A stretch of 64,000 nucleotides of DNA from a virus: the IMG/VR virus record IMGVR_UViG_3300045988_087149, positions 33,102 through 97,101 of that record, one strand, 5' to 3'. The translations under genes were made by a program, and so were the position numbers. The notes beneath the pieces were generated by a model. The model was not told the origin of the DNA and did not search any database. It was given only the letters and a program-made list of their open reading frames with translations. Position 1 is the stretch's first letter. Every line of letters starts with the position of its first letter. Shown here piece after piece: positions 10,068-51,561 of this stretch.

Positions 10068-10382
10068 TTATCTGAATGTCGTGCCATCCCAAGGATTATA
10101 TTCATAACCGCAATGAGGGCAATAATTAGCTTCAACTAATTCATAATGCCAACCACATCTAGCACATGCCCCATACCATGAACCATCTGTATTGCGTTGG
10201 TGCTTCCATTTTAGCTTTGACTCATATAACGGCTTATATGCACTGCATAATTCTCTTCCTTTATCACTACATGCGAATGGTTCTTTTACAGCCCAACATT
10301 CATTGACTGTTATATCTCGCATTTCACCACTTGCCCATCGTCTATATATAACCTCATGTGCATACTTACATGGTGTTCTCAT
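10068..10382 (-). CDS. Cys-rich hypothetical protein (104 aa)
   Basis: ORF track. CARCGWHY ... CPHCGYEY. 4-nt overlap with the primase stop. Confidence 0.5.
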   Translation of the reverse strand: MRTPCKYAHEVIYRRWASGEMRDITVNECWAVKEPFACSDKGRELCSAYKPLYESKLKWKHQRNTDGSWYGACARCGWHYELVEANYCPHCGYEYNPWDGTTFR

Positions 10383-31538: not shown

Positions 31539-31609
31539 TGACCGAGGCGGGACTTGAACCTGCATTCATCTGCTATGAACAGCTCGCTTACCAGTTAGCT
31601 GACTCAGTC
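31539..31609 (-). tRNA. tRNA with anticodon CAU (Met or lysidine-modified Ile2), 71 nt, no encoded CCA
   Basis: Hand-folded. Acceptor GACTGAG/CTCGGTC (one G-U). U8, A14, G18G19. Anticodon loop TTCATAG. T arm GCAGG-TTCAAGT-CCCGC. Three stem mismatches lower confidence. Confidence 0.6.
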
Positions 31610-31703: not shown

Positions 31704-31780
31704 TGGTAGCTCAGGTGGAATTCGAATCCACACTTTACGGATTTTGAATCCGCTCCCTCTGCCGATTGGGGTACTGAGCC
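31704..31780 (-). tRNA. tRNA with anticodon CAA (UUG), class I (5-nt variable loop), CCA encoded
   Basis: Hand-folded. Acceptor GGCTCAG/CTGAGCT (G1-U72), A73, CCA. Anticodon arm GCGGA-TTCAAAA-TCCGT. T arm GTGGA-TTCGAAT-TCCAC. Confidence 0.75.
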
Positions 31781-46157: not shown

Positions 46158-47339
46158 TTATTCATTCTCCTCATTTTCATCACAATCTTCATCTACAAAA
46201 TGGACATCTACGTTAAAAAATTCTTTTAGTACATCAATAGCCTCTTTTGGCTCGATGCGGAAAAATTCTCTATCAGGGTTGACCCGCTCTTTGTCAAAAT
46301 ATTTATGGATATTATTTTCTAGCTCAAAACAGTCATCGCTAAATACGAAGCAATGAGCGTGGTACGGTTCTGGCAAGCTGCTTGAGCTAAGTTCGCGCAC
46401 TCTCAATGCAGGATTCAATCTTCTAGTACAACCGAGCTTCACCAATCCGGGTAGACTAGGTGAACTAATGACATATAGCCAACCAGCCTTACTATGCGAC
46501 TCACGATAAGCAATAGAATCAAGCCGCTTATCAATACTAGCTAATTGAGATTTAATCCTATTGCGCTCATCATCTGTTAACGCCTTATCAAACGCAATAT
46601 TCATTGCTTTCTTTTCTTCTAGCAACTTGGCGCGTTCTCTAGCAATATCAGCAAGCAACTGTTCTTGCTCTCTCAATCTGCGCTTTTCTTCACGGATTCG
46701 CGCTTTTTCTTCTTTCTGCTTGACTTTGATAGCCAAGTTAATATCGAGCATATCAAGCCGCGCCTTTACATATTCAGCATTAAGCGCCAATCCGACCTTA
46801 TTTGCTTTAGACTGATAAGAATTAAATTTATTCTTAATCAATTCTTTGCTCTTAGCAATATTGCCTGTTGTTACAGATTTTTCTTTGCTGTCAATATATC
46901 CTGACATAGCATAGCACAATCCGCGCCCATATACATCCTGCATTTCTTTTCCACGTCTGTCTGAGCCGTTTAGCGTATATCCTTGCTCAATGCGATACAA
47001 GCCAGTGTTCGCAGCAGATTCAATTTTGCTTTGCAGCTCATAACGCTTATGCTCAAGTTCATCTAGCGAATCCTGATAATATGGAATATTATAATCCTGC
47101 ATTTCTTCAATGGCATGGATTTTACCATTTAGAGCATCAAGAACGGATTGAGCCGTTTTTGCAGATCGCATGGTGTTTTCATATTGATGCGCAGCAATTT
47201 GACGATGTTCATCATAGTTATCAATTTCTGCTTGCATACTAGAAATATCTGCTTTGAGTTGAGCAATCTGCTCTTCAAGCTCTTTCTTCTTCTTGTTCAG
47301 CTTGAAAGTCTCGAACATGCTTAGCCGCCTCCTTGCCAA
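46158..47339 (-). CDS. Coiled-coil (DUF4041-like) protein with C-terminal T5orf172 / GIY-YIG-like domain (393 aa)
   Basis: Long heptad-rich N-terminus. C-terminal GWLYVISSPSLPGLVKLGCTRRLNPALRVRELSSS ... EFFRI matches the T5orf172 (MUG113) pattern. Confidence 0.6.
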   Translation of the reverse strand: MARRRLSMFETFKLNKKKKELEEQIAQLKADISSMQAEIDNYDEHRQIAAHQYENTMRSAKTAQSVLDALNGKIHAIEEMQDYNIPYYQDSLDELEHKRYELQSKIESAANTGLYRIEQGYTLNGSDRRGKEMQDVYGRGLCYAMSGYIDSKEKSVTTGNIAKSKELIKNKFNSYQSKANKVGLALNAEYVKARLDMLDINLAIKVKQKEEKARIREEKRRLREQEQLLADIARERAKLLEEKKAMNIAFDKALTDDERNRIKSQLASIDKRLDSIAYRESHSKAGWLYVISSPSLPGLVKLGCTRRLNPALRVRELSSSSLPEPYHAHCFVFSDDCFELENNIHKYFDKERVNPDREFFRIEPKEAIDVLKEFFNVDVHFVDEDCDENEENE

Positions 47340-47729: not shown

Positions 47730-47758
47730 TTGACAAATACTGTAATATATGGTATAAT
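47730..47758 (+). promoter_or_regulatory. Sigma70-type promoter, TTGACA-17-TATAAT
   Basis: TTGACAaatactgtaatatatggTATAAT. Confidence 0.7.
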
Positions 47759-47822: not shown

Positions 47823-47851
47823 TTGACAAATAATCAATTATATGATATAAT
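47823..47851 (+). promoter_or_regulatory. Sigma70-type promoter, TTGACA-17-TATAAT with TG extended -10
   Basis: TTGACAaataatcaattatatgaTATAAT. Confidence 0.7.
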
Positions 47852-47880: not shown

Positions 47881-48024
47881 TTGTGGAGCGAAATGAGCTA
47901 TAACTGGTATGTATCGAAAGATACGGAGCCAGAAGTATGGGATGATGAATATGAGCCAACTGAGCGTGATTGGGCGCTTTGGATATATGGTAGTTCAGAG
48001 AATGAATTAGAGGTGATTTTTTGA
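47881..48024 (+). CDS. Small acidic Trp-rich protein (47 aa), TTG start
   Basis: Below the track cutoff. AAGGAGGTGG lies 7 nt upstream. (M)WSEMSYNWYVSKDTEPEVWDDEYEPTERDWALWIYGSSENELEVIF. TTGA overlap with the RNAP start. Confidence 0.45.
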   Translation: MWSEMSYNWYVSKDTEPEVWDDEYEPTERDWALWIYGSSENELEVIF

Positions 48025-49622
48025 GCCTACAGACGCAAATTTATTTGCATTCAGTGGACACGTCATGTTTTTATGACGACAACGAAATGGCACTACATAG
48101 ACGGCTTGTTCGGTTATATTCGTTGCGCAAGCGATGGAAGGATGATGGTAAACCAGATTGGCACATCAAGTCTGTAAATCGTTTGCTTAAAAAAGAAAAG
48201 GCGCGACTATCTGAATTGCTTGATAATGCTGTGAGTCGAAATGTAACTAGAGAATTGCGTCAAGATGCTGTGACCGATAAGACGGTTGTTAATTTATTTG
48301 AATCTGATCTAACGCGAAGCTTAGGGCTTGAGCCATTCAAGTTGACCGATGAACTATTCATCATTAACGTGTTTTTCTTTCAAGTATTTAACAATCTAGT
48401 TCATCAAGGATTTATCTACAATGGTGAAAAATATTTGTTCCTTACAGCATCAGCAGGACAGATAAGGACGAAACGAGCAGTATTCGTTAAAGAATCGTCG
48501 TTTAAGCGCATTGAGCAAAAATTGATGTGCGGCTTGACCATAGACGAAATCAATGAGCGGGGAGGCATGAATCAGAATAAATTCCTTGCTTATTTGGCGC
48601 TTATGAACTCTGCTACAGATGTTTGGCAAGATTTTGACATTGACAAATCAGTTGTAGTAGATGATTGGGAAACAGCTGTTCCGGGATTGGTTGACCACAT
48701 TGATGGCGTATCGTATGAGATTCGGCGCGAAATGACAGAGACAATGATTCCTCATATGGACGGATGCGGCATCATGCTTAATGAAACAACAAGAATGGTG
48801 CGTATGCCATGGGTAAAGGGATTACTTGTTACATTTCCATTTGACAAGTTTATCAAAGAGAAATGCGGAGGTGAAGCGACTGTAATAGATATTTATGGCT
48901 ATGAGCATAAAATCATAGAGGAAGATATACGGTATATATTTACAAAGAGCCAATTCAAGCTATGGAAATTTTATGATTCGTGGGATTGCTATAAGGCGCG
49001 ATTCAAAAATTTTGGATGTAATGCCTGTTATTGCAATATAGAAGAGCCTTATATTCCAAAGAGCCGCATCAACTATCAGATGCTTCAAACATTGAGCGAT
49101 ATGACTGATAATGAGATCGACCGCATCGTTTCTAAGACTGCACAAGAGATTGATGATGTTGGCAAAGATTATCAAGTTACTATGCGGCTACTTGGCGCAA
49201 CAGAGAACAACCGTTATAAGTCGGCCATGCAAGAGGCGTTGTTGATATATCCTGAGTTGTTTAAGGATTCATATAATCGAGAAATTCTGAAGCAGACTAA
49301 AAAGAGTTTAGTAAAGCAAGCTAAGGGCGGGCGGCTTAGAGTAAATGGTAAATACCTTTTTTTAGCGCCTGACCTATATGCGTTTTGTGAATGGTTGTTC
49401 CTAGGCGAACAAAACCCGCAAGGATTGCTTGCAGATGGTGATGTATATACAAACCAATATCGAGATGAAGAAACGTTGGCTTGTTTGCGTTCGCCGCATC
49501 TATATCGAGAATGGGCAATCAGGACAAATCGACGCAGCTTAGAGCTTGATTATTGGTTTGGTGGAACTAAGTGTATATATACTAGCTGTCATGATTTAAT
49601 CAGTAGATACTTAATGTTCGAT
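48021..49622 (+). CDS. YonO/RdRP-like single-subunit RNA polymerase, exon 1 (534 codons)
   Basis: FLTASAGQIRTKRAVF and CLRSPHLYREW blocks. Ends ...RYLMFD at the 5' splice site. The TAG at 49623 is intronic. Confidence 0.7.
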
Positions 49623-50589
49623 TAGTTAGTCGCAGTCGAACCCTATGGAAACATAGGGATATAAAACGGTGTGAAGGCGTAAATGCGCCATGTCAGAAAT
49701 GGCAACGGGGAAAGTGAGTGCAACCCCGTAGGAAATAGAATGAATGAATTATTAAACTATAAGGAGGTGGAAAAATGTATAAAGAAGGAATTTATTGCCG
49801 TTGTGCATATCGAGTAAATGAAAATGGAGATTGTTATACACAAAATGGCAAATTTGAGTGGGTACATAGAGAGTGGCGATATAACAGTGATGGGTATGCT
49901 GTTGTATCAGCTTGTGGTCTAAAGCCAGACGGTACTAAGACATTCCGCTCACTTCATGTTCATGTATTAGTTGCGAGAGAATTTGTTGATGGATGGTTTG
50001 AAGGCGCAGAAGTAAATCATAAAGATTTTAACCGTGCTAATCCTGCTTGGTGGAATCTTGAGTGGTTAAGTCATAAAGATAATATTGCTTATTCGCATAA
50101 CGCTGGTAATTATAAAGGGCGGTTTGGTGAGGACAATCCAAACTATGGTAATGACACGCTACACAAGAGATACGTCGCCGAGCCTGAATTTGCCAAAGAA
50201 AAGCAGTCTCGGCCAAGAGGACAAAATGGACGTTCTGTGAAATGCTTATTATATTGTCATCAAAATATGTGTTTTGAGCATTGGTTTGATTGCCAGCGCG
50301 ACGCAGTTGATTTTCTTATTGACTATAATGTCGTAAAATCAACTTGTAATAAAGAGAGTATAATTAGCAAGCTGAAACAAGAAGATGGATATAAGGGCTG
50401 GCATCTTATTCAAGATAAATAATTCATTCATTTAAAACCTCTATCGACTATCGAAAGGATATAAATCAACCGTGTGGGTTGATTTAGAATAACTGAGTAG
50501 AGTAGGAAATGGGTGAAATTCCCATCTCCGAAGCGCACCGAGCCTAAACGGGAAACCGCATGGTTATGATATAGTCAGTAACTCCTACG
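49623..50589 (+). mobile_element. Group I self-splicing intron (967 nt) carrying an HNH homing endonuclease ORF
   Basis: P1: exon GTTCGAT (49616-49622) pairs with intron GTCGAAC (49635-49641), with U-G at the cleavage site. P10: GTCGCA (49629-49634) is the complement of exon-2 TGCGAC (50590-50595). Terminal G at 50589. GAAA-capped hairpins are present. Splicing restores the reading frame and the DxDGD motif. Confidence 0.85.
49775..50422 (+). CDS. HNH homing endonuclease (215 aa), intron-encoded
   Basis: VNHKDFNRANPAWWNLEWLSHKDN (HNH_3 / I-HmuI-like). Own AAGGAGG RBS. Confidence 0.8.
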   Translation: MYKEGIYCRCAYRVNENGDCYTQNGKFEWVHREWRYNSDGYAVVSACGLKPDGTKTFRSLHVHVLVAREFVDGWFEGAEVNHKDFNRANPAWWNLEWLSHKDNIAYSHNAGNYKGRFGEDNPNYGNDTLHKRYVAEPEFAKEKQSRPRGQNGRSVKCLLYCHQNMCFEHWFDCQRDAVDFLIDYNVVKSTCNKESIISKLKQEDGYKGWHLIQDK

Positions 50590-51561
50590 TGCGACGGAGA
50601 TAAGGCGCTTGTAGTCAAAGACCGTACTTTGTCTACAGTTGCCAAACGCAATATGCAAGATATAGTTCCTTTAGCATACGATCTCAAAAAAGCTAAGGGC
50701 GGCTTGTTAAATCCAGACAGTATGTATAATGGAATGGTAAATGCTTATACTAAGGGAAATATCGGGCCGGTTAGTAATAATATTACAAAAATATGGAATA
50801 GTGGTGAAATTACACAAGAAGAACTAGATGTAGTAAAATGGCTTTGTTTTGAGAATAACGCTGTTATAGATTGCGCTAAAACGCAATGGCTACCAGAACG
50901 ACCGAAACAAATTAATAACACAATCAAGAAATATACAAAAGCTCGTGTTCCCAATTTCTTTCAATATGCCAAAGACAAAGACCCAGATACCCAAGTAGAA
51001 CCGTCCAACAATTCCACGATGAATCGTATATCAGCCAAAATTCCTGCTTCCAGAATCCGCTATAATAGCAAGATTGGGAAATTCGACTGGACGATGCTGA
51101 TAAATAAATCAGTTGATTATACCACTAGAGAAAATTCACCAATCGTCGAACGGTATAATTGGTGGATGTGGAATCAGCGCCGATTTGATTATGGCGATGA
51201 CCCGCATATCAATGAGGACGATTTATATAAATATCGCTGCATTGCACAAGATATAGTGGAATATAGCAATAAGCCGCTAGATGTTGTTGTTAATAGCTTA
51301 GTTGCTTATTTATATACGGTCAAAAAATCAAGCAATAAGAAAATGCTGTGGGCTTGTTTTGGTTGGACGATTGTAGAGAATTTGAGAATCAATACGGCGC
51401 AACTTAATCCAATCTGCCTCATTTGCGGTAAGCGGTTTAAGCCGCGTGATGTATGCCAACATTATTGCTCTGAGGAATGCTACAAGAAAGCAGATAATCA
51501 GCGGCGCACTGAATCGCGCGAAGCTTCACCTGTCCGCACGGGGGATATGTTAAAACAGTAG
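50590..51561 (+). CDS. YonO/RdRP-like RNA polymerase, exon 2 (323 codons plus a TAG stop)
   Basis: Begins CDGDKALVVKDRT and continues in frame into track ORF 50629..51561. C-terminal CLICGKRF ... CSEEC zinc ribbon. Confidence 0.7.
   Translation, partial: CDGDKALVVKDRTLSTVAKRNMQDIVPLAYDLKKAKGGLLNPDSMYNGMVNAYTKGNIGPVSNNITKIWNSGEITQEELDVVKWLCFENNAVIDCAKTQWLPERPKQINNTIKKYTKARVPNFFQYAKDKDPDTQVEPSNNSTMNRISAKIPASRIRYNSKIGKFDWTMLINKSVDYTTRENSPIVERYNWWMWNQRRFDYGDDPHINEDDLYKYRCIAQDIVEYSNKPLDVVVNSLVAYLYTVKKSSNKKMLWACFGWTIVENLRINTAQLNPICLICGKRFKPRDVCQHYCSEECYKKADNQRRTESREASPVRTGDMLKQ

Follow-up and report, generated by a model that had tools for sequence, protein, structure and literature searches.

The question raised by this locus is whether three consecutive open reading frames (ORFs) of a viral contig are separate genes, or whether two of them are parts of one RNA polymerase gene that is interrupted by an intron. 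The DNA analysed here, called the window, comprises 64,000 nucleotides (nt) of the record IMGVR_UViG_3300045988_087149, and all gene and intron coordinates refer to it, on the + strand unless stated otherwise. The three ORFs, 48021..49625 (534 amino acids (aa), TTG start), 49775..50422 (215 aa), and 50629..51561 (310 aa), lie on the + strand. An earlier note on this DNA had taken the first and the last as halves of one gene, split by a group I intron with an HNH endonuclease. Our analysis makes it very probable that 48021-51561 holds a single gene, which encodes a DNA-dependent RNA polymerase of the YonO type (single-subunit, two-barrel), with a mobile IA-like group I intron at 49623-50589, inserted in the codons of the catalytic D-x-D-G-D motif.

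Both halves of the gene match a single protein family. Exon 1 covers positions 2-550 and exon 2 positions 551-845 of phrog_8308 (847 profile positions; E-values 1.8e-180 and 1.3e-56), and the match is seamless at the junction. This contiguous match, together with the intronless alleles described below, bears out that the two ORFs belong to one gene. In a tblastn search of isolated phages, the spliced product was 44% identical to YonO of SPBc2/SPbeta over residues 3-827, which is 96% of its length (E = 0), and further homologs were found in other Bacillus, Psychrobacillus, and Clostridium phages. Exon 1 also contains the Pfam RNA-dependent RNA polymerase (RdRP) domain PF05183 above its cutoff (30.4 bits, cutoff 23.8). 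The motifs FLTASAGQIRTKRAVF and CLRSPHLYREW, cited by the earlier note for the YonO/RdRP class, occur in exon 1, where they align with blocks conserved in YonO.

YonO is a characterised DNA-dependent RNA polymerase, whose activity is lost when the aspartates (Asp) of its catalytic triad are changed to asparagine, and which transcribes the late operon of SPbeta (PMC5467207). Given the identity of the window protein to this biochemically characterised enzyme, its membership in the family is settled, whereas DNA-dependent RNA synthesis and late-gene transcription would be its functions by analogy with SPbeta. The next gene downstream of the polymerase gene encodes a HU-like DNA-binding protein (phrog_379), which matches the yonO-yonN order of SPbeta. 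A megablast search of the gene against isolated phages and a search of NCBIfam returned no match, and the scan of genome contigs for a host or prophage detected only relatives of at most 60% identity, in Paenibacillus, Clostridia, and Treponema metagenome-assembled genomes. The PDB sequence search with the spliced polymerase gave no meaningful match, so that no close relative of the polymerase has a solved structure. In two yonO homologs (L021, 3001-4701, and L032, 3001-5667), exon 1 is about 96-99 nt longer, which resembles an in-frame extra segment.

The interruption lies within the catalytic triad. The first Asp is the last codon of exon 1, and exon 2, read from 50590, gives CDGDKALVVKD.... 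Joining 49622 to 50590 produces a frame of 2574 nt (857 aa) in which the restored FD/CDGD (here and below, a slash within a sequence marks the junction) aligns with FDNDGD of YonO, in agreement with what the earlier note had derived from the reading frame. The triad is complete only once the exons are joined, and FDNDGD is, in our reading, the essential Asp triad of YonO (PMC5467207). The TTG start of exon 1 is preceded by a GAGGTG ribosome-binding site (RBS). The frame of exon 2 has an in-frame stop at 50572, no start codon between this stop and TTG 50629, and its first possible start at this TTG, downstream of the DGD codons. Because an in-frame TAG opens the intron and exon 2 could be started only after CDGD, no unspliced polypeptide holds all three Asp.

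The boundaries of the insert were defined by comparison with other alleles. A scan of viral contigs gave 41 loci with relatives of the polymerase gene, against which the spliced protein was run by tblastn. Uninterrupted alleles with 93-96% aa identity are present in seven viral contigs (L005, L006, L007, L008, L009, L019, and L024). Inserts of 283-979 nt occur at exactly the same position, between codons 534 and 535 and hereafter called site A, in L020 (967 nt, essentially the intron of the window), L021 (969 nt), L028 (964 nt), and L030 (960 nt), and in L040, L042, and L045, where the identity of the host gene is only about 44% and the 283-nt insert has no ORF but still contains stops. A DNA-pattern search added the inserts of L092 (979 nt) and L070 (388 nt). 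With blastn, the intron itself gave only short matches, to endonuclease or core sequence.

Intronless alleles read ...ATGTTCGAT/GTAGACGGGGAT... across the junction, or also ...TTCGAT/GTAGACGG..., and intron-bearing alleles read ...TTCGAT/intron...G/TGCGACGGAGAT.... Precise excision from the window would give the ligated-exon junction ATGTTCGAT/TGCGACGGAGAT, in wider form ...TTAATGTTCGAT/TGCGACGGAGATAAG..., and in L006 the intronless junction is ATGTTCGATGTAGACGGGGAT, compared with ATGTTCGATTGCGACGGAGAT at the intron-plus exon junction. The insertion point, between the first and the second Asp codon, is thereby known to the exact base, and G50589, earlier proposed as the last intron base, is confirmed by the sequence and by the intronless alleles.

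The same ORFs could also be understood as a gene in pieces, with a free-standing HNH cassette between a 534-aa and a 310-aa polypeptide that assemble without RNA splicing, similar to the mobE insertion in nrdA of phage Aeh1. Two long ORFs do flank an endonuclease gene with its own RBS, and analogous genes of Bacillus phages are treated in GenBank as yonO_1 and yonO_2. However, a 310-aa protein started at TTG 50629, after CDGD, loses two of the three catalytic Asp of a triad that is essential in YonO, and no RBS is found ahead of 50629. Moreover, the non-coding flanks of the endonuclease gene form a covarying RNA with group I topology, and the 283-nt inserts occupy the same site, still with stops, in the absence of any endonuclease gene, which excludes the insertion of a simple endonuclease cassette. 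We consider a gene in pieces very improbable.

The chance that the insert is another type of element (intein, group II intron, site of translational bypass or recoding) is close to negligible. Beyond the interruption of a conserved motif, nothing speaks for it. An intein is excluded by the in-frame TAG at the start of the insert and by the frame of the HNH ORF, which differs from that of the exons. No reverse transcriptase ORF of a group II intron is present, and the group II search gave only a chance-level match of 14.5 bits on the ORF-less homolog L040. For bypass, 967 nt is far beyond any known case. The features of a split polymerase gene with a group I intron, as well as those around it, are collected in Table 1.

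Table 1. Positions of the predicted features in the window (bp, base pairs; compensatory, positions with compensatory changes among the homologs compared).
Feature	Position	Strand	Details
Promoter-like site, second perfect sigma-70-like match	47730-47758	+	Consensus scan
Promoter-like site TTGACA-17-TATAAT with TG	47823..47851	+	Consensus scan, 12/12 matches; precedes a small ORF and the polymerase gene
Exon 1, YonO-type RNA polymerase gene	48021..49622	+	534 codons, TTG start, ends ...RYLMFD
Group I intron, 967 nt	49623..50589	+	In-frame TAG at start, terminal G at 50589; bounds fixed by alleles
P1 and internal guide sequence	49616..49641	+	GTTCGAT 49616-49622 with GTCGAAC 49635-49641; U49622.G49635 at the 5′ splice site
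P10	49629-49634 and 50590-50595	+	GTCGCA (in P1 loop) with TGCGAC; compensatory 3/6, e.g. GTCCAT with GTGGAC in L030
P2 hairpin CCCTATG-GAAA-CATAGGG	49641..49658	+	Compensatory 4/7; 42/42 cells paired; in minimum-free-energy fold
P3, 5′ strand CGGTGTG	49667..49673	+	Pairs with 50534-50540; in minimum-free-energy fold
P3.1 and P3.2 (provisional names)	49676..49703	+	P3.1 49676-49689, P3.2 49692-49703 (GAAA loop); compensatory 5/5 and 2/4
P4	49706..49728	+	CGGGG 49706-49710 with CCCCG 49724-49728; encloses A-rich J4/5 and minimal P5; compensatory 2/5
P6, 5′ strand, and P6a, 5′ arm	49730..49750	+	AGG 49730-49732; GAATGAATGAATT 49738-49750
HNH homing endonuclease gene, 215 aa	49775..50422	+	In P6a loop; own RBS; frame differs from exons
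P6a, 3′ arm, and P6, 3′ strand	50421..50440	+	50421-50433; CCT 50438-50440
P7, 5′ strand GACTAT	50446..50451	+	In R-like element AACGACTAT; pairs with 50571-50576
P7.1 and P7.2	50463..50529	+	P7.1 50463-50485, P7.2 50505-50529; 18/18 pairs double-changed; 85-99% of cells paired
P3, 3′ strand CGCACCG	50534..50540	+	Directly 5′ of P8
P8 (AGCC with GGTT) and inner hairpin CGG-GAAA-CCG	50541..50565	+	7/7 pairs double-changed
J8/7 and P7, 3′ strand, ATGAT-ATAGTC	50566..50576	+	S-like element
3′ tail, 13 nt	50577..50589	+	No P9 hairpin; terminal G at 50589
Exon 2	50590..51561	+	323 codons and stop; opens TGCGAC GGA GAT = CDGD
Site B, empty in the window	50871..50872	+	...NNAVID/CAKT..., about 94 codons 3′ of site A

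The non-coding parts of the insert can be folded into a group I ribozyme. The strand order is P1-P2-P3-(two hairpins)-P4-P5-P4′-P6-P6a(ORF)-P6′-P7-P7.1-P7.2-P3′-P8-J8/7-P7′-tail-G, which we take to be that of a subgroup IA group I intron in the Michel-Westhof scheme, save the two-hairpin insertion and the missing P9. The sequences AACGGGGAAAG with AACCCCGUAGG, AACGACUAU, and AUGAUAUAGUC are similar to the consensus blocks known as P, Q, R, and S in classical group I introns. In the same way, the P4 region is similar to the group I P/Q consensus elements, and J8/7-P7′ to the S consensus AAGAUAUAGUCC.

The helices proposed in the earlier note were all found where it had placed them. The 7-bp P1 with its U.G pair is present, but only 6 bp are kept in relatives, the seventh pair being specific to the lineage of the window; P1 pairing is otherwise identical in all site A homologs, i.e. 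invariant. P10 is likewise present and covaries. The two GAAA-capped hairpins correspond to P2 (49641-49658) and to the inner hairpin of P8 (50549-50558), and both helices covary. The loop that contains the HNH ORF with its own RBS is closed, as described before, by the 13-bp P6a stem (49738-49750 with 50421-50433). P3 shows compensatory changes at 4/7 positions, including those of the phi3T intron at a second site (site B, see below), with 49/49 cells paired, and P6 covaries at 3/3 positions (AGG with CCT versus GCT with AGC in L040).

In the 3′ half, P7 was paired in 99.8% of cells of 68 distinct sequences, with one double-changed pair (U-A to C-G) in an otherwise near-invariant GACUAU/AUAGUC. 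A nearly invariant hairpin, TATC-GAAAG-GATA (50449-50461), competes with distal P7. The hairpins P7.1 and P7.2 are the peripheral pair typical of subgroup IA, and their linker holds an invariant GTAGAGT (50497-50503). The tail sequence ACTC(C)TAC can pair with this linker element in 55/56 cells of eight site A introns, with one-sided changes only, and the same pairing is equally possible in the SPbeta bnrdF intron. An alternative register of the 3′ tail, GTAGGA with TCCTAC, was ruled out, as it overlaps the base of P7.2.

Covariation was evaluated separately for the two halves. The 3′ halves of eight site A introns were aligned and used for a covariance model with P7, P7.1, P7.2, and P8, which was searched in 53 sources and gave 79 matches, the single one in the window being 50441-50589 with 178.7 bits. 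In the resulting alignment, standard pairs occupied 96.2% of cells compared with 67.8% in shuffles, a figure that is somewhat inflated since the alignment was fitted to the structure of the model. Changes on both sides were found in 26/31 pairs, 0/500 shuffles reached the observed values, and sliding the partner strand reduced pairing to 31-41%. For the 5′ half and the long-range helices, MAFFT alignments of whole ORF-deleted introns and of 5′ halves misaligned the variable hairpins, hence six distinct site A introns and the phi3T intron were parsed by hand. In this set, every cell of P10, P2, P3, P3.1, P3.2, P4, and P6 was paired (100%), and each of these helices had 2-5 positions with compensatory changes. 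When the intron without its ORF was folded with RNAfold, all nested helices were returned, including the long-range P3, with -101 kcal/mol compared with -66 +/- 5 in shuffles (z = -6.7).

The 215-aa ORF is predicted to encode a homing endonuclease. It is preceded by a strong RBS, AAGGAGGTG, at 49761-49769, and its product matches phrog_59 (5e-18), among the PHROG HNH families. The only solved-structure match is I-HmuI, a nicking endonuclease from the DNA polymerase intron of SPO1 (PDB 1U3E; E 6e-7, residues 12-111), with the ..NHKD..N..N.. motif aligned. The ORF is intact in the window, L021, L028, and L030 (60-96% identity), degenerate in L092, and deleted in L070, L040, L042, and L045. Intact, degenerate, and deleted ORFs, together with the empty sites, correspond to the stages of a homing cycle.

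Intron-plus and intron-minus alleles are present in near-identical genes. When the spliced gene was compared with intronless alleles (L005, L006, L019, and L024), exon nt identity was 90-100% in most 60-nt bins, and it dropped to 73-82% and 67-70% only in the two 60-nt bins that flank the junction (49542-49722 and 50590-50650; positions 1542-1661 of the coding sequence). The comparison with L027, which has an intron at site B only, showed a second dip at site B. These local dips are the co-conversion footprint expected of homing from a divergent donor. The predicted endonuclease presumably nicks or cuts the intronless alleles of co-infecting relatives, and repair would then copy the intron together with flanking exon sequence. 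The exact boundaries, the covarying helices, the ORF-less versions, and this co-conversion signature together sustain the earlier identification of the 967-nt insert as a group I intron.

Site B is occupied in L010, L011, L021, L027, and L042, two of which (L021 and L042) have an intron at site A as well, and among cultured Bacillus phages in phi3T, SPR, Goe11, Goe14, BUCT083, and SPbetaL3-L7 (L001-L003 correspond to Goe14, phi3T, and BUCT083). The inserts at site B are related ribozymes with P3.1 and P3.2, which reach 25-26 bits with the 3′-half model, and they contain a GIY-YIG ORF, another ORF, or no ORF. Ligation of the exons would restore ..NNFTID/FAKT.. as in the intact YonO of SPbeta, and in phi3T and Goe14 the ligated sequence would read ...ACTATCGAT/TTCGCAAAAACC.... 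GenBank shows the genes with an insert at site B only as two ORFs (yonO_1/yonO_2 in Goe11 and Goe14) or as hypothetical proteins. The exon context GAT/TGCG is common to both sites, with TTCGAT/TGCGAC at site A (49617-49622 and 50590-50593) and ATAGAT/TGCGCT at the empty site B (50866-50875), and could result from related guide sequences or from ectopic spread between the sites.

These records limit the novelty claimed in the earlier note. No description of a yonO intron was found in the full-text literature, including papers on SPbeta-like phages, within a coverage that is incomplete, but split yonO genes were already in GenBank, with inserts at site B. As regards introns in phage RNA polymerase genes in general, a group I intron with HNH endonuclease has been published for phage PhiPA3 (PMC11620839), and what is left to the case of the window is the single-chain YonO class and the Asp triad itself.

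Several points weigh against a group I intron that splices itself, besides the inflated pairing figure of the 3′ half. The Infernal check suggested by the earlier note was negative for this intron: the Rfam group I model RF00028 had no match to it, neither at the gathering score in the window nor at E ≤ 10 in 49550-50650, and it also missed the 283-nt ORF-less homolog (L040) and the phi3T/Goe14 inserts (L001-3), while the positive controls from SPbeta were detected, bnrdE with 92 bits and bnrdF with 42 and 37 bits. The core departs from the canonical one by two hairpins between P3 and J3/4-P4 and by the absence of a P9 hairpin. P1 and P7 are invariant, which makes covariation uninformative for both. 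The Pfam domain HNH_3 scores 23.2 bits in the 215-aa ORF, just under its cutoff of 24.8. Lastly, catalytic self-splicing and the specificity of the endonuclease are both predicted from the sequence.

The miss of RF00028 is likely due to the two extra hairpins and the absent P9. In canonical relatives, P3 is followed by AA or UAA and then by P4 (e.g. CACGUG-AA-UUGCUGG; L083 and L063 have P3-AA-P4 without intervening hairpins), whereas yonO introns at both sites have P3-AA-hairpin-hairpin-(U)AA-P4, where P3.1 and P3.2 are specific to them. P9 is present in the site B relatives and in jumbo-phage relatives. The introns of L083, L063, L089, and L077 reach 51-93 bits with RF00028, above gathering, and 58-71 bits with the 3′-half model. 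Since these RF00028-positive relatives share the 3′ core, the 3′ core of the window belongs to a family with group I members recognised by the curated model. Rfam RF00028 and GISSD models can miss or half-match phage introns (PMC11878797), and an optional 'P3.1' is listed among the peripheral elements of group I introns (PMC3873408), hence the insertion is not claimed as unprecedented. The window intron is assigned to group I by comparative structure and not by the curated model.

The departures of the core would also fit an intron that is derived from group I but no longer self-splicing, either because its splicing requires a protein, such as a host factor or maturase, as cofactor, or because the element is decaying and inactivates the polymerase gene. 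The insertion in J3/4, the missing P9, the very small P5, and the absence of a match to RF00028 are in agreement with this. However, the architecture is kept with compensatory changes across host genes of about 44% identity and at two sites, including that of phi3T, which indicates selection on the RNA, and the exons are still intact ORFs with conserved catalytic residues. In addition, the bnrdF insert of SPbeta, whose 3′ tail is similarly short, carries an intron annotation in the SPBc2 record and was reported to splice by Lazarevic in 1998. We regard the loss of self-splicing as unlikely.

Other copies of the 3′ core were observed in larger genomes. The 3′ core motif occurs ten times in the jumbo-phage-sized contig IMGVR_UViG_3300045988_176405 (249 kb; L050, L051, L061, L064, L071, L072, L082, and L088) and five times in contig _176431 (254 kb; L049, L055, L058, and L068). 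The 3′-half model finds further copies in the loci of both contigs, and both genomes appear unusually intron-rich. L063 (776-1744) and L089 (4621-6722) have 3-5 RF00028 matches above gathering within 1-2 kb, which are tightly clustered group I introns and may lie in a single gene. In L077 (9942-10523), a tRNA match (10201-10285, 54.8 bits) is located between the 5′ and 3′ halves of the RF00028 match, and this tRNA may be nested in an intron loop.

Returning to the split polymerase gene with a group I intron, its expression may proceed as follows. The host RNA polymerase would transcribe the gene from the upstream sigma-70-like promoters. In the pre-mRNA, the last exon base U49622 would pair with G49635 in P1, exogenous guanosine bound in P7 would attack the 5′ splice site, and P10 together with the terminal G50589 would align the 3′ splice site. 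Exon ligation would produce an mRNA for the 857-aa polymerase with its Asp triad intact. Unspliced RNA gives only the 534-aa fragment, ending at the TAG at 49623, and no second fragment with DGD. Active polymerase thus depends on splicing, so that the phage's own transcriptase would require a ribozyme step, and by analogy with YonO of SPbeta late transcription would depend on it too.

YonO-type phage polymerase genes are thus recognised as intron targets, with two recurrent sites, one of them inside the Asp triad. Where such genes are annotated as two ORFs or as a truncated 'hypothetical protein', surveys of the polymerase family and of late transcription under-count intact enzymes. An intron family that escapes the Rfam group I model is also a useful test case for intron detection in phages. 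Splicing and competition are testable in the tractable B. subtilis phage phi3T, which has a related intron at site B.

A broader reading, which we put forward as possible but rather doubtful, is that the yonO introns of sites A and B form a distinct IA-like subclass with a two-hairpin insertion in J3/4, undetected by curated models, that at site A has no P9 and a tail docked in the P7.1-P7.2 linker, and that has repeatedly colonised two core sites in Bacillus phages and uncultured viral contigs. If this were true, the endonucleases could be weapons between co-infecting phages, as in PhiPA3, or alternatively splicing could time the switch to late transcription or serve as its checkpoint.

Upstream of the polymerase gene, the two sites that match the sigma-70 consensus would act as promoters, which for 47823..47851 is deduced from the consensus match. 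Further upstream, on the opposite strand, a 393-aa ORF (46158-47339, -) has a coiled-coil N-terminal part and a C-terminal domain that matches phage families, including an 'endonuclease' family (phrog_1847, phrog_681). An Rfam DUF3800-VIII RNA was found at 54236-54303 (+), about 2.7 kb 3′ of the polymerase gene (46.0 bits, gathering 40.2). The window also contains two tRNA genes on the - strand, 31707-31780 (56.6 bits) and 31539-31609 (33.5 bits), the second being a weak, unusual match. Pfam scans of six other large ORFs of the window gave no match.

Among the closest known systems, the gp210 intron of PhiPA3 is a putative group I intron that encodes an HNH (nicking) endonuclease and splits the gene of a phage RNA polymerase (Birkholz et al., Science 2024, PMC11620839). 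Similar to the window, the gene encodes a phage RNA polymerase, the endonuclease is of the HNH type (predicted in the window), and the insertion is next to conserved aspartates. The PhiPA3 endonuclease acts on a related phage, whose intronless allele is its target, which results in interference competition between phages (PMC11620839), and an endonuclease that targets an essential gene of relatives, as predicted for the window, is the arrangement behind this competition. However, the host gene of PhiPA3 encodes a beta-like subunit of the multisubunit polymerase of a Pseudomonas jumbo phage, and its intron is beside the aspartates of that subunit, whereas in the window the polymerase is single-chain, of the YonO type, and the insertion is inside the beta′-like DxDGD metal-binding triad. 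The window extends the PhiPA3 precedent to the single-chain YonO class and its Asp triad, with a ribozyme variant that the curated model misses.

With the DNA polymerase intron of SPO1/SP82, the window shares a (predicted) phage endonuclease encoded in an intron, I-HmuI being the closest solved structure, but the host gene is another one, and the identity between the endonucleases is low. The Bacillus phages with split yonO (phi3T, SPR, Goe11, Goe14, BUCT083, and SPbetaL3-7) have the same gene family and a related ribozyme, including P3.1 and P3.2; they differ in that the intron is at site B, has a P9 hairpin, and is ORF-less or carries GIY-YIG. The SPbeta introns bnrdE and bnrdF are also phage group I introns in an essential gene with an HNH ORF (yosQ in bnrdF) in an internal loop. 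In the 3′ half, bnrdF agrees with the window in AACGACUAUCG (P7), a GGGUGAxAxCCC hairpin, CGAA-P3′, P8, AUGAUAUAGUC, and a short tail that ends in ..CUCCUUACG. In contrast to the window intron, both are recognised by RF00028, their host gene is ribonucleotide reductase and not a polymerase, and in bnrdF P3 is followed directly by UAA-P4, where the window intron has two hairpins.

The introns in td, nrdB, and sunY of T4 (subgroup IA2) have, like the window intron, P7.1 and P7.2 between P7 and P3′, an ORF in a peripheral loop, a stop codon soon after the intron begins, and a position at conserved catalytic sites. Unlike the window intron, they are extended by P9-P9.2 and lack hairpins between P3 and P4. 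Group I introns with HNH or GIY-YIG endonucleases at conserved sites of essential phage genes are classical, as in T4, SPO1, and SPbeta, and the intron in the polymerase gene of the window is an expected extension of this well-known phage intron biology rather than a surprise.

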